This document shows, in pieces, positions 1,198-4,773 of a stretch of DNA of 13,648 nucleotides. Origin of the DNA: a virus; the UHGV virus genome UHGV-0343520; one strand, written 5' to 3'. The position numbers and the translations under genes were made by a program. A model generated the notes under the pieces. The model was not told the origin of the DNA. It ran no database searches and was given only the letters and a program-made list of their open reading frames with translations. The stretch's first letter is position 1. Every line of letters starts with the position of its first letter.

Positions 1198-1736
1198 TTT
1201 ACCCAACGAATACAGGAAAAAGCGGAGAACACCTTCGTCTCGCCACGCTGGAAAGTGTCTGGATTCAGGGCAAACTGCGTATGTGGGGGCGCTGGTCGTA
1301 TATTGGCGGTGGCAGGTCAGGAAATATGTTCAATCAGTTGTTGGCATCCAAAAAATTGACGAAAACAGCCATCAATGAAGCCCTGCGCAGAATGAAAAAA
1401 GCGGGAATAGAGAAAGCTGAGCTGGAAGCGTTTTTGCGAGAGATGATCAACGGCAAGCAAAAGAGCTGGCTGGCGCATTGTACTGATGCAGAGGCGTTAT
1501 GTATTGATCGAGTCATAAGTGAGGTGCTGGCAGAGCATCCAGGATTGATTTGCATTCTCCGGCAACGCTATGAAGGGCGGGGGATGACTAAGCGTAAAAT
1601 GGCTGAATTGCTAAATGATGCACACCCAGAGTGGTGTTTTAGCACATGCGAAAAACGGATTGCTAATTGGTTAGCTGTTGCTGAGTATGCCCTATATATT
1701 CCCATGCGTGAATCATTTGCTGAGAAAATGGCTTGA
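1194..1736 (+). CDS. Late-gene antiterminator Q-like protein
   Basis: GTG at 1194 is preceded by AGGAGGG (1181-1187) and overlaps the stop of the upstream gene. An in-frame ATG at 1074 is an alternative start but lacks a Shine-Dalgarno. The N-terminal W-x-G-x-W region (RMWGRW) recalls Q proteins of the 933W/PF06530 type. Position is canonical: immediately upstream of a terminator-rich leader and the lysis cassette. Confidence 0.6.
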   Translation: MIYPTNTGKSGEHLRLATLESVWIQGKLRMWGRWSYIGGGRSGNMFNQLLASKKLTKTAINEALRRMKKAGIEKAELEAFLREMINGKQKSWLAHCTDAEALCIDRVISEVLAEHPGLICILRQRYEGRGMTKRKMAELLNDAHPEWCFSTCEKRIANWLAVAEYALYIPMRESFAEKMA

Positions 1737-1820
1737 TTTCTTACGTATAAACTGCTTCAATTTTGCTATGCTTCGCAAAGCTGTATCGCGAGGCGGATTG
1801 CAGACATGGACATCGTAAAA

Positions 1821-1843
1821 AAACCGCTTAATGCGGTTTTTTT
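1821..1843 (+). terminator. Rho-independent terminator downstream of Q (candidate tR'-like)
   Basis: Stem AAACCGC (1821-1827), loop TTAAT, stem GCGGTTT (1833-1839), then a T-run to 1843. An A-tract upstream means it could also terminate on the opposite strand. Confidence 0.7.
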
Positions 1844-2334
1844 ACGTCAGGAAAGCAGGGGAGAATGCTGCTAGTTGGGCAACTGGTCTTTCTGCTTGCT
1901 TAAGTGGAGAATTCGCATATTGGCGTGTAACTTGCGCAGAATACACATCTTTTACACGACTTGTTAGTTTATCCTGCGGCTTGTTATGATTATTTTAGCA
2001 TATTATCAGTTTTCACGGCCTGAATCTTGGTTAAGGCTCTTTATCCTGTTGTAATGACAGAAATAAATGGTGGATGGAATTCAGGACGGTTTGTTTTAAT
2101 AAAAAATGTAACTCAGGAAATAAGTTAACCTAACTGGAATCACTTTCGGATTATTAAGATTGAAGTGCCTTTTCTTCCTTTTTAGTATCGGTGCCAGTTC
2201 CGGGGAGAGCGGCTTTTATTGTTTGATTAGAGCTGACACGAAGAACTAATGTAGATCTGGTTTAGTCGGTATGGCTCATGATTTGAAATCTAATCAGTAG
2301 TTTATTTGTTCGAGCGCGATAGTTGGTACCATAT

Positions 2335-2380
<46 letters not shown>

Positions 2381-2723
2381 CGTGGATGAGGCTCTGGTTT
2401 TGCAGCACTGGCGTTTTTTCGTGGGGAAAGGTCTCCTGAGCTCCTTTATCGCTACCCCAAATTATAACAGAGACCAGTTATAGTTTCGGTGCTGTGTTTT
2501 TTTTACAATATTGTGATAACACATTGCTGGCGGGAGTTTTGATATTCCTTGGCAGGGGATGATGATGCGTTATCCTGATGTCGTCAACTCATATAAAATG
2601 AGATGAGAGATCATCGCCGGGTGGTTTGTAATTCGCTGTTTAGCGGGACAATATGTTGTCTGATACAAGACACCCGACGCCTCAGATTACTATAATAAAG
2701 ACGAAGCATCCTTTGTATTGACC

Positions 2724-2749
2724 AACCGCCTGTTTAGGCGGTTCTTTTT
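2724..2749 (+). terminator. Rho-independent terminator
   Basis: Stem AACCGCCT (2724-2731), loop GTTT, stem AGGCGGTT (2736-2743), followed by CTTTTT. Confidence 0.7.
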
Positions 2750-3272
2750 GGGCTGGTTTATTGTATGCCAAATGATTATTAAAAAGGTTGTGTTAATAAC
2801 AAAATCCGAAATAATATGCCTGCATATTTTTATCTTGCTTATATTGTGCATAGCAGGCTCATCCCTGCAATCAAAACTGTATGATGAGTATTTTTTGTTT
2901 TCCTTTTTTCCAGTCATCTGATGATGACCTGCTTCTTTTTAATCCGGATCGACATCAGTTTTTTAAGATAATTCCTGCGAGTTATATGCACAAATGCCAC
3001 AAACTCCGCATTTTATGTGGTTGGGAGTTGCCGGGCGCGCAGTGAGTTTGCTAAGAAAACTCCTGCATGGTGAATCCCCCTGTGCGGTGGGGTGATACCA
3101 TTAACCTTTTCTGTCGCCGACAGGTATCACGAACATTTTGTTCACCGGGAGGCACCCGGCACCATGCACTTCAATAGATTCTCTCCACATTATGGATATT
3201 CTTTCAGAATATCCCACGCAGACTTTGTGTAAATGTTAACAAATGTGCGTTTTATTTGATCTGATTCGCTGT

Positions 3273-3302
3273 TTGAGCGTCCAAAACAACGGTATATATA
3301 AT
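3273..3302 (+). promoter_or_regulatory. Sigma70-like promoter for the lipoprotein moron genes
   Basis: TTGAGC (3273-3278), 18-bp spacer, TATAAT (3297-3302). This leaves a ~25-nt leader to the ATG at 3332, which has GAGGAAAA as Shine-Dalgarno. Confidence 0.45.
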
Positions 3303-3331
3303 CCTTTACTATATGACATATGTGAGGAAAA

Positions 3332-3760
3332 ATGGGTTTTCGTAGCGCATCAATTCTTACGTTGATTATTAGTGGGATTATTATCGGGTGCACTGATGCT
3401 GTATCGACAAATTATCATGACCGTACATCATATTACTCCGATAAAGCAATAGAGACACAGTATGTGAGTTCATCTGAACGTACTTCTGATGTTAGTGAGG
3501 ATATCCGTCTGTATGCCCATCAAATCAAGAGCGCCATCGAAAAACAGTTCGGGGATGCGAGTAAGTATTCAGGAAAAGAGTGTACACTGAGAATGCATAT
3601 GGCCCCGAATGGCCTTCTACTGGAGGTTAAAAGAGAAAGTGGAGACCTCGATTTATGTCGTGAAGCGATGAATGCGATAAAGAATGCTGATATACCTGCC
3701 CCCCCTTCGCCGGAAGTATATAAAGTATTTCAAAATGGGGTGCTGGATTTTAAACCCTGA
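3332..3760 (+). CDS. Lipoprotein with TolA C-terminal (domain III)-like domain
   Basis: 142 aa. N-terminal signal peptide with lipobox IIGC. The C-terminal ~85 aa (YAHQIKSAIEKQF...CTLRMHMAPNGLLLEVK...PPSPEVYKVFQNGVLDFKP) align closely with the recalled C-terminus of E. coli TolA (...YAGQIKSAIESKF...CTLRIKLAPDGMLLDIK...VFKNAPLDFKP). AT-rich with its own promoter. Confidence 0.8.
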   Translation: MGFRSASILTLIISGIIIGCTDAVSTNYHDRTSYYSDKAIETQYVSSSERTSDVSEDIRLYAHQIKSAIEKQFGDASKYSGKECTLRMHMAPNGLLLEVKRESGDLDLCREAMNAIKNADIPAPPSPEVYKVFQNGVLDFKP

Positions 3761-3910
3761 TATTTATTGTTTTGTAATAAACGGTTTCGGCTTAGGTTTG
3801 TTCTGACACAGCTACGGCACTGAGCTAAATTTAGCGGATAGTCAGCTCTGAGCCAGTGGCGGACGTAACAACTACTATTGCTGAGATTTTAATGGATTGA
3901 GGAGCAAGAA

Positions 3911-4306
3911 GTGGGATTAAAGAAAATCGTTATGTTGACTTTTTGGGTCGGTTTTGTTGCGGGATGCACACCTTTACACCCTTCAGATTGCCACAAAACT
4001 ACTGCTACAGGTAGTTGCAGTTCAGGACGCTGGGATGATCAGGATGAATGGGGGGCGCAAGCGCGGGGAATCAGAGCTGCAATTAATGCCAAACTTGATG
4101 AGCCGCATAACTGGAAAGGGAAAAAATGCAGGTTGCATATGGAATTCTCTCAGGATGGCACGGCGTTAAAAATATCTACCAGTAACGGTGATAAAGCCTA
4201 TTGCGAAGCGATAAAGTCCGCAGCTCATAAAGCCAAATTTCCGGCCTTCAACAATCCGGAAGTCTACAGAGATTTTCAGAAATCTGGCTTTGACATGCGA
4301 GGTTAG
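3911..4306 (+). CDS. Second, divergent lipoprotein with TolA domain III-like C-terminus
   Basis: 131 aa with GTG start after GAGGA. Lipobox VAGC. C-terminal region (IRAAINAKL...KKCRLHMEFSQDGTALKIS...FNNPEVYRDFQKSGFDMRG) follows the same TolA-III pattern as the upstream gene but is more divergent. Confidence 0.75.
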   Translation: MGLKKIVMLTFWVGFVAGCTPLHPSDCHKTTATGSCSSGRWDDQDEWGAQARGIRAAINAKLDEPHNWKGKKCRLHMEFSQDGTALKISTSNGDKAYCEAIKSAAHKAKFPAFNNPEVYRDFQKSGFDMRG

Positions 4307-4431
4307 CTCTTCAATTACTATATCTCATTCATAGCAAACTGACAGATTTAATGATGTTCTATATACGAAACCTGTGATGTCAAGTCTGAGCTAATACAAA
4401 TAAACATAATATCAGAGAAATACATTTTATT

Positions 4432-4453
4432 AGCTCGCTACGGCGAGCTTTTT
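4432..4453 (+). terminator. Rho-independent terminator after the lipoprotein pair
   Basis: Stem AGCTCGC (4432-4438), loop TACG, stem GCGAGCT (4443-4449), then a T-run to 4453. Confidence 0.65.
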
Positions 4454-4557
4454 ATATTGCATCGTCTCCAGCATATATATCAATTAAGGCTCTGATTGAT
4501 GTGTCTGAAAGCCTACACATAATAACTATGCCATCCGTTCCGTGCGGAGGTGAGGCT

Positions 4558-4773
4558 ATGAAATCCATGGACAAAATTTCAACAGGCATTGCCTACGGCA
4601 CCTCCGCAGGCAGTGCTGGCTACTGGTTTTTACAGTTGCTCGATAGAGTAACTCCGTCACAGTGGGCTGCAATCGGTGTGCTGGGTAGTCTGGTATTTGG
4701 CCTGCTGACGTACCTGACAAACCTTTATTTCAAGATTAAAGAAGATAAGCGCAAGGCTGCGAGAGGTGAATAA
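4558..4773 (+). CDS. S: Pinholin, phage 21 S21 type (class II holin/antiholin with dual start)
   Basis: Translation [26 protein letters not shown]...[15 protein letters not shown] is near-identical to S21 as recalled. Dual-start motif M-K-S-M, with GGAGGTGA just upstream. Stop overlaps the endolysin start. Confidence 0.9.

Follow-up and report, generated by a model that had tools for sequence, protein, structure and literature searches.

The GC-rich cluster of hairpins at positions 3064–3168 of the window (by which we mean the whole 13,648-nucleotide stretch of viral DNA that was analysed) is the folded core of STnc100, an sRNA also called EcOnc27 or sRNA103 and related to PasD. We consider it likely that the element as a whole is the structured 5' domain of a prophage sRNA gene of this family. 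It belongs to a known and widely annotated family, and the window contains no new kind of element: the observation made in the initial annotation is real but ordinary, because STnc100 is a catalogued sRNA gene of lambda-like prophages. By cmscan against Rfam 15, window positions 3035–3221 on the + strand match RF02076 (STnc100) with a score of 86.6 bits (E = 7.9e-18), for a family gathering cut-off of 47 bits. The match extends over model positions 1–206 of 206, is not truncated, and is the only one in the whole window to exceed a gathering score. The core helices of the model are recovered in the minimum free energy (MFE) fold of the window sequence, namely the closing helix, the CCCCC/GGGG hairpin, and the CCGGG-AGGCA-CCCGG hairpin that abuts the closing helix. 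A permissive Rfam scan of positions 1600–4600 (E ≤ 1) found no second family on the element. The possibility that the segment is a structured RNA, one of three raised in the initial annotation, is thus the correct one; the segment is the RF02076 core and its helices are backed by covariation, as described below.

STnc100 is a gammaproteobacterial family, first listed in Salmonella, and has been listed as one of the most abundant annotated sRNA families of bacteria (PMC9029176). Lambda-like prophages of both E. coli and Salmonella have its gene in the interval that separates the late regulator Q from the lysis genes. In EHEC strain Sakai, EcOnc27/sRNA103 crosslinks to Hfq, is positive on northern blots, and occupies the interval from PR' to the lysis genes in no fewer than eight prophages (PMC4104026, PMC7873438). 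In strain EDL933, 11 STnc100 copies are transcribed, and a northern blot was positive for one of these (PMC5331693), while in Salmonella LT2 the sigma factor RpoD was found bound at STnc100 promoters by ChIP-exo (PMC10794520). One copy, located 75 nt after stx2B, was detected in outer-membrane vesicles (PMC12370729). Overexpression of sRNA103 leads to increased levels of fimZ and espA transcripts by a mechanism that is unclear (PMC7873438, PMC12711010), and STnc100 variants have been associated with clinical outcome (PMC12711010). No molecular mechanism is established for any member of the family in the papers that we consulted.

PasD1 and PasD2 of EPEC E2348/69 (Pearl Mizrahi et al. 2021, PMC8550237; Zhu, Shabalina and Storz 2026) are reported structural relatives of STnc100 (bioRxiv 10.64898/2026.05.13.724894), and their stability is Hfq-dependent (PMC8550237). 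They are encoded by lambdoid prophages, close to the genes for lysis and for the Q antiterminator, and the usual neighbors are LpxR and a sialate esterase. According to the preprint of Zhu, Shabalina and Storz, PasD is too divergent from STnc100 for BLAST, and we liken it to the window element through these published descriptions.

The window represents the late region of a Rac-type lambdoid prophage, and the element is in its moron-insertion zone, pointing in the same direction as the late operon. The gene order on its 5' side is a gene for a DUF1367 protein, YbcO, a Q-like DUF1133 protein gene that ends at position 1736, and a pR'/tR'-like unit at approximately 1750–1850, after which there is about 1.5 kb without credible ORFs. 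On its 3' side are two genes for lipoproteins with a TolA C-terminal domain (3332–3760 and 3911–4306), followed by a P21-type holin, lysozyme, Rz, and then trkG. The element is oriented in the same way as all of these neighbors. It had been described as lying upstream of the lipoprotein promoter, and we find a promoter match (TTGAGC-18-TATAAT) in the appropriate place, at 3273–3302. Phage mEp460 has an occupant at the same genomic position, as does an Stx2a phage, where it directly follows stx2B. RefSeq has no annotation at the site.

Several other features were seen on the + strand between the Q-like gene and the element. Directly after the Q-like gene, at 1750–1850, there is a pR'-like promoter with a tR'-like terminator (AAAAAAACCGCTTAATGCGGTTTTTTT, approximately 1821–1847), and this interval weakly resembles isrK, below the threshold (21.6 bits, E = 0.1). 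At 2667–2752 there is a candidate for a very short sRNA of about 50 nt, consisting of a promoter match AAGACA-18-TATAAT (2667–2696, 10/12 positions) and a strong terminator, AACCGCC-TGTT-TAGGCGGTT plus a T-run (2724–2749); this candidate folds with −16.6 kcal/mol (z = −2.8) and has no Rfam match and no counterpart in the phage collection. Phage tRNA genes, such as ileZ-argN-argO of Stx phages, occupy the same niche between Q and the lysis genes, and the window has decayed tRNA-like sequence at approximately 2280–2400 (GGTATCGTATAATGGCTATTACCTCAGCCTTCCAGGCTGATGA...) that is not called by ARAGORN.

The sequence features on which the initial annotation was based are all present. CCCCC is found at 3076–3080 and GGGG at 3089–3092; the 8-bp inverted repeat GTGATACC/GGTATCAC is at 3092–3099 and 3123–3130, with 100% complementarity in an inverted-repeat scan (repeat I6); and the CCGGG-AGGCA-CCCGG hairpin is at 3145–3159. 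The GC content is 0.46–0.51 over positions 2900–3199 as compared to 0.35–0.41 in the flanks, which agrees with the description of a GC-rich island in AT-rich DNA, and we also agree that no T-run occurs 3' of any of the three hairpins. The description of them as nested hairpins needs to be modified, because although all three are real they are not independent elements but parts of one multi-helix domain. That domain is delimited by a feature that had been missed, a perfect 9-bp closing helix (TGCATGGTG at 3064–3072 with CACCATGCA at 3160–3168; repeat I2 in the inverted-repeat scan) that encloses all three hairpins. Also missed were a hairpin GAACA-TTT-TGTTC at 3131–3143, and two hairpins downstream (3194–3214 and 3216–3250), the second of which is followed by TTTATTT. 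The features are listed in Table 1.

Table 1. Coordinates of the STnc100-family element and associated features in the window.
Feature	Position	Strand	Details and basis
Putative promoter region	3021..3057	+	TTGGGA 3021-3026, TTGCCG 3028-3033, GAGTTT 3044-3049, TGcTAAGAA 3049-3057
P1 closing helix, 5' strand UGCAUGGUG	3064..3072	+	Pairs with 3160-3168
P2 hairpin, CCCCC-UGUGCGGU-GGGG	3076..3092	+	Loop with invariant GCGG; sequence, fold
P3 5' strand GUGAUACC	3092..3099	+	Left arm of the 8-bp repeat; corresponds to the family pseudoknot strand 2-6 nt after P2
Inner hairpin within P3, UGUC-GCC-GACA	3112..3122	+	Variable insert; MFE fold; length and sequence vary among copies
P3 3' strand GGUAUCAC	3123..3130	+	Right arm of the 8-bp repeat; in relatives, the loop of hairpin P4
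Local hairpin P4', GAACA-UUU-UGUUC	3131..3143	+	MFE fold; competes with canonical P4 in the window allele
Invariant 28-nt block	3141..3168		No differences among the six alleles compared; zone of mosaic crossover
P5 hairpin, CCGGG-AGGCA-CCCGG	3145..3159	+	Invariant; sequence, fold
P1 closing helix, 3' strand CACCAUGCA	3160..3168	+	Fold, covariation in 32 copies, inverted-repeat scan
C/U-rich linker CUUCAAUAGAUUCUCUCCACAUUAU, 25 nt	3169..3193	+	Predicted single-stranded; unpaired in MFE and centroid folds
Hairpin A, GGAUAUUCU-UUC-AGAAUAUCC	3194..3214	+	AU-rich, without U-run; -9.5 kcal/mol; inverted repeat I4
Hairpin B, ACGCA...UGCGU (3216-3250), then UUUAUUUG	3216..3258	+	Imperfect; -9.3 kcal/mol; weak terminator candidate

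The cluster of hairpins exceeds what is expected by chance. The 111-nt core on the + strand has an MFE of −45.6 kcal/mol (z = −3.9), and none of 200 shuffled sequences folded as well; for the 205-nt unit the folding z-score is −4.7. The fold of the core consists of five helices around one junction: P1, P2, P3 with a small inner hairpin, the local hairpin at 3131–3143, and P5. In the general layout, P1 closes the domain, an AAU junction leads from it to hairpin P2, helices P3 and P4 come next, and the invariant hairpin P5 is last.

Comparison among relatives supports the helices. We aligned 32 cores from many enterobacterial genera and found that, for P1, P2 and P5 taken together, 94.1% of alignment cells are paired, as compared to 86.9% in shuffled alignments, and two-sided changes are seen in 52 cells (no shuffle of 500 was as high). 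P1 has two-sided changes at 7 of its 9 pairs; P2 is near-invariant in sequence (99.2% paired), with a single compensatory change; and P5 is also near-invariant (99.4% paired), with a compensatory change to CCAGG...CCUGG in two copies. In the canonical form of the family P4 is a hairpin that ends directly before the sequence ACCGGG, and it is 90.5% paired versus 67.2% in shuffles, with 72 cells showing two-sided change (again, 0 of 500 shuffles were as high). One of the P4 pairs is G.U in 17 of the 32 copies, so the RNA strand is the + strand, a point on which the initial annotation had been silent. The terminators with T-runs in relatives are also on the + strand. The variable region differs in length among copies (51, 52, 53, 56, 57, 59 ... 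nt).

The P4 loop can pair, in nearly every copy, with a complementary segment located 2–6 nt after P2. Because MAFFT registers shift in this region we did not use a column-based test, and instead compared cognate to non-cognate partners by permutation. The summed score of the cognate partners is 495, as compared to 356 ± 16 for permuted partners, and none of 5000 permutations was as high. On this covariation evidence, P3 of the family is an H-type pseudoknot formed between the post-P2 segment and the P4 loop, and the 8-bp repeat pointed out in the initial annotation is this covarying pseudoknot helix. The pseudoknot is missing from the RF02076 structure line printed by cmscan, and the word "pseudoknot" is absent from the 2026 preprint on PasD and STnc100 (bioRxiv 10.64898/2026.05.13.724894).

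The window allele departs from the family in this part of the structure. Canonical P4 in the window (3119–3124 with 3137–3142) keeps 6 of 8 pairs, with three G.U pairs and C.C at the closing pair, as read from the alignment, and P3 has been lengthened to 8 bp by the pairs C3098:G3124 and C3099:G3123. The energy model favors a nested alternative, consisting of the extended P3 plus the local hairpin GAACA/UGUUC, over the pseudoknot of the family. In E. coli O91 RM7190 the repeat reads GUGAUAUC/GAUAUCAC, which is a compensatory change at pair 3098:3124 and fits the extended P3. We infer the choice of conformer, since the O91 RM7190 change is also compatible with canonical P4; from the predicted energies, P3 in the window allele most likely folds as a nested helix and not as a pseudoknot.

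The way the repeat changes among relatives also bears on the suggestion that this segment acts as DNA, either as an operator of the lipoprotein promoter, bound by a phage or host regulator, or as a site for site-specific recombination. In favor of this, the region has perfect inverted repeats near a promoter, and mosaic joints do occur at 3141–3168. The 8-bp repeat, however, changes in sequence among relatives yet stays complementary, as in O91 RM7190, and the covarying repeats of the region include G.U pairs that are workable on one RNA strand only. Complementary sequence change fits an RNA helix, not a protein-binding site, so an operator is not supported; the element also ends more than 100 bp before the −35 box of the lipoprotein gene. 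There is no adjacent recombinase gene, and ordinary homologous crossover in the 28 nt of identical sequence accounts for the joints. We therefore regard a DNA-level function as very improbable.

These joints are visible in a comparison of alleles. The mEp460 and CP55_Sichuan alleles are 100% identical to the window only from position 3141 onward, for at least 360 nt; upstream of 3141 they are different and have a canonical P3/P4 set. The O91 RM7190 allele shares the 5' half with the window only as far as 3168, after which it has a terminator and a gene for a SASA-esterase. As judged from these alleles, the 28-nt invariant block joins the 5' half of the window core to the upstream region of the TolA-like lipoprotein gene. 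The mosaic joints fall in the invariant 3' block, and therefore cargo modules have been exchanged there by homologous crossover. The proposal of a recombination site holds only in this sense, as a point of homologous crossover with joints at 3141–3168, and not as a site-specific site. The window copy is without a strong terminator and without a convergent partner RNA because the crossover joined its core to the lipoprotein upstream region.

At the 5' end of the element, the TTG(ACA), GAGTTT and TTTGnTAAnAnAA motifs are common to six E. coli and phage alleles, and in the same six-allele comparison TTG, TTTG.TAA and flanking bases are invariant. Among 35 copies, an A/T-rich block resembling a −10 box is found at a fixed distance, 8–14 nt 5' of P1. 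From these consensus matches we propose a putative promoter in the window, with either TTGGGA (TTGACA in relatives) spaced 17 nt from GAGTTT, or an extended −10 box, TGcTAAGAA. The −35 box of the window is weaker than that of relatives. The start site would then be at approximately 3055–3066, at the foot of the closing helix; the first position of the RF02076 model is 30 nt 5' of this. The presumed −10 box is overlapped by a near-perfect hairpin of 9 bp (GAGTTTGCT/AGAAAACTC, window 3044–3062), whose formation would be limited to RNAs initiated upstream, for example a Q-dependent late transcript. In two genomes (loci L011 and L021, at approximately 1440–1500) an STnc100 promoter region, TTGACT-17-TTAACG, is directly 3' of the end of a tRNA gene (GGTTCGAGTCCTCGATGGCGGACCA).

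The family's 3' terminator is a GC-rich hairpin with a U-run, which the literature regards as an Hfq-binding module, and by our count from the alignment a canonical terminator is present 50–60 nt after P1 in approximately 16 of 25 aligned relatives. It is not found in the window copy: hairpin A is aligned by Rfam to the family's terminator position and has no U-run, hairpin B with its tail is a weak candidate for an intrinsic terminator as judged by folding, and a scan for consensus terminators picked up none at 3194–3258. The linker that precedes hairpin A, predicted to be single-stranded, is a candidate base-pairing (seed) region. A duplex search of positions 3166–3196 against 15 start regions in the window gave no significant result; the best duplex was with the start of the second holin gene (−20.4 kcal/mol, z = −2.1, not significant over 15 tests).

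In Stx2 phages of EHEC, EcOnc27 (sRNA103) is encoded immediately 3' of stx2B (Tree et al. 2014, PMC4104026; PMC7873438). It is a member of the same family, in the same orientation and the same place between PR' and the lysis genes, and the EcOnc27-type copy of the Stx2a phage aligns with the window over P1, P2 and P5. EcOnc27 ends in a canonical terminator and is paired with an anti-sRNA, AsxR, which is encoded convergently on the opposite strand; in the Rfam scan of window positions 1600–4600 there was no match at E ≤ 1 to AsxR (RF02703) or to the anti-sRNA AgvB (RF02702). The downstream cargo also differs, being nanS-p for EcOnc27 and the TolA-like lipoprotein gene in the window. In the O91 RM7190 (locus L035, approximately 470–520) and Stx2a_WGPS6 (locus L033, approximately 3150–3230) alleles, a second hairpin occurs after the STnc100 terminator with an A-run before it. 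This would be a terminator for the minus strand, and it matches the EcOnc27/AsxR convergent dyad of Tree et al. (PMC4104026). The 3' module of the window is without this convergent terminator pair. Relative to STnc100 in general, then, the window shares the closing helix, the P2 and P5 sequences and the position in the prophage late region, but has hairpin A, without a U-run, at the position of the terminator and a P3/P4 region that is apparently rewired in favor of a nested fold. One very common E. coli allele has apparently rewired the P3/P4 region and lost the canonical terminator.

This allele is widespread. By megablast, the 196-nt unit was found in 1459 of 5426 complete E. coli genomes, with most of the unit covered in 462, and 719 E. 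coli records are at least 99% identical to it. The nearest genome (G001) has an identical copy (locus L009). Among phage records, the conserved 5' part of the family matches many Stx1 and Stx2 phages. A search of 301 Enterobacteriaceae genomes with RF02076 gave matches in 58 of them, spanning 42 of 178 genera, often with several matches per genome, some of them in tandem, and with many limited to model positions 31–147, which is the folded core. Tandem STnc100 cores include three that are about 257 nt apart in locus L007 (1268–1907, genome G216) and two in locus L001 (1528–2034, genome G302), and in both loci each copy has its own covarying P3/P4 set.

Published work on relatives suggests how the window RNA may act. 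It would be transcribed in the lysogen from its own sigma-70 promoter, would be bound and stabilized by Hfq, and would act in trans by pairing through the single-stranded stretch 3' of the domain, here 3169–3193, with the folded core serving as a stabilizing or protein-binding scaffold. In the window copy there may be read-through into the lipoprotein genes, given only a weak terminator candidate at 3216–3258.

Read-through is the starting point of the main rival to a trans-acting sRNA, in which the domain is a leader within the TolA-like lipoprotein mRNA, at its 5' end, or belongs to the Q-antiterminated late transcript, and acts in cis on the moron genes downstream by controlling their stability, processing, termination or translation. 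The rival gains some weight because no strong terminator separates the core from the lipoprotein gene in the window allele. Consistent with it, the many family matches that consist of the core only have no flanks of their own, tandem copies without individual terminators exist (for example, the three in L007), and the element is always co-directional with the late operon at the loci we inspected. Against it, the lipoprotein gene has its own good promoter match downstream of the element, relatives have their own terminators about 50–60 nt after the core, and the RNAs of relatives are seen as discrete bands on northern blots and crosslink to Hfq (PMC4104026, PMC5331693). On balance we consider a cis leader unlikely.

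A further reading is that the element encodes a small protein. The program-made ORF list contains a 46-codon ORF with a GTG start at 3092–3232, and ribosome footprints have been reported on some of the EDL933 STnc100 copies (PMC5331693). We rejected this coding reading, to which we give almost no credence, because the lengths of the insert differ among copies by numbers that are not multiples of three. In mEp460, which shares the 3' part, the insert is 5 nt longer and the frame is shifted, and conservation tracks the helices, not codons.

One observation is left unexplained by the trans-acting sRNA model: the sequences of P2 and P5 are nearer to invariance than a simple scaffold needs. P2, P5, the loops GCGG and AGGCA, and the AAU junction are near-invariant in the 42 genera, in contrast to the free covariation of P1, P3 and P4. 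This pattern would fit a function that resides in the fold, with a pseudoknotted, tRNA-sized domain that binds or decoys a host or phage protein or a ligand, and with pairing via Hfq being secondary or incidental. The outline of the element is cloverleaf-like: a closing stem and a 3-nt junction are followed by an arm of 4–5 bp, the loop of which has 8 nt, and another arm, of 5 bp, is directly next to the closing stem. The loop of this arm, which is in the position of a T-arm, is 5 nt long, and a pseudoknot is found in place of an anticodon arm. The element is recognized neither by ARAGORN nor by the Rfam tRNA model, and we rejected a tRNA or tRNA-like identity after ARAGORN reported 0 genes and no tRNA or tmRNA model (or other family) matched at E ≤ 1 in 1600–4600. 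No partner is known, and the window allele has apparently loosened the pseudoknot and is nevertheless common, with its 719 near-identical E. coli records. A function of this kind appears to us decidedly unlikely, and we continue to prefer a trans-acting sRNA.

A combination of these ideas is worth stating, even though we think it rather doubtful. The STnc100/EcOnc27/PasD core may be a pseudoknotted domain, conserved in the sampled Enterobacteriaceae (42 of 178 genera), whose function is in its fold (for example, the binding of a conserved host or phage factor), and the common Rac-type allele in the window may be a rewired variant, nested and terminator-less, that works as a cis leader of an accessory gene.

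STnc100 sits beside Shiga toxin genes in EHEC phages. To what is known of this family our analysis makes small additions: that the repeat is a covarying pseudoknot helix, that a common allele is apparently rewired and terminator-less, and that the invariant 3' block is, as judged from the alleles compared, a crossover point for accessory genes. The pseudoknot, the rewiring and the crossover points would be useful in designing mutants to probe the role of the conserved fold.
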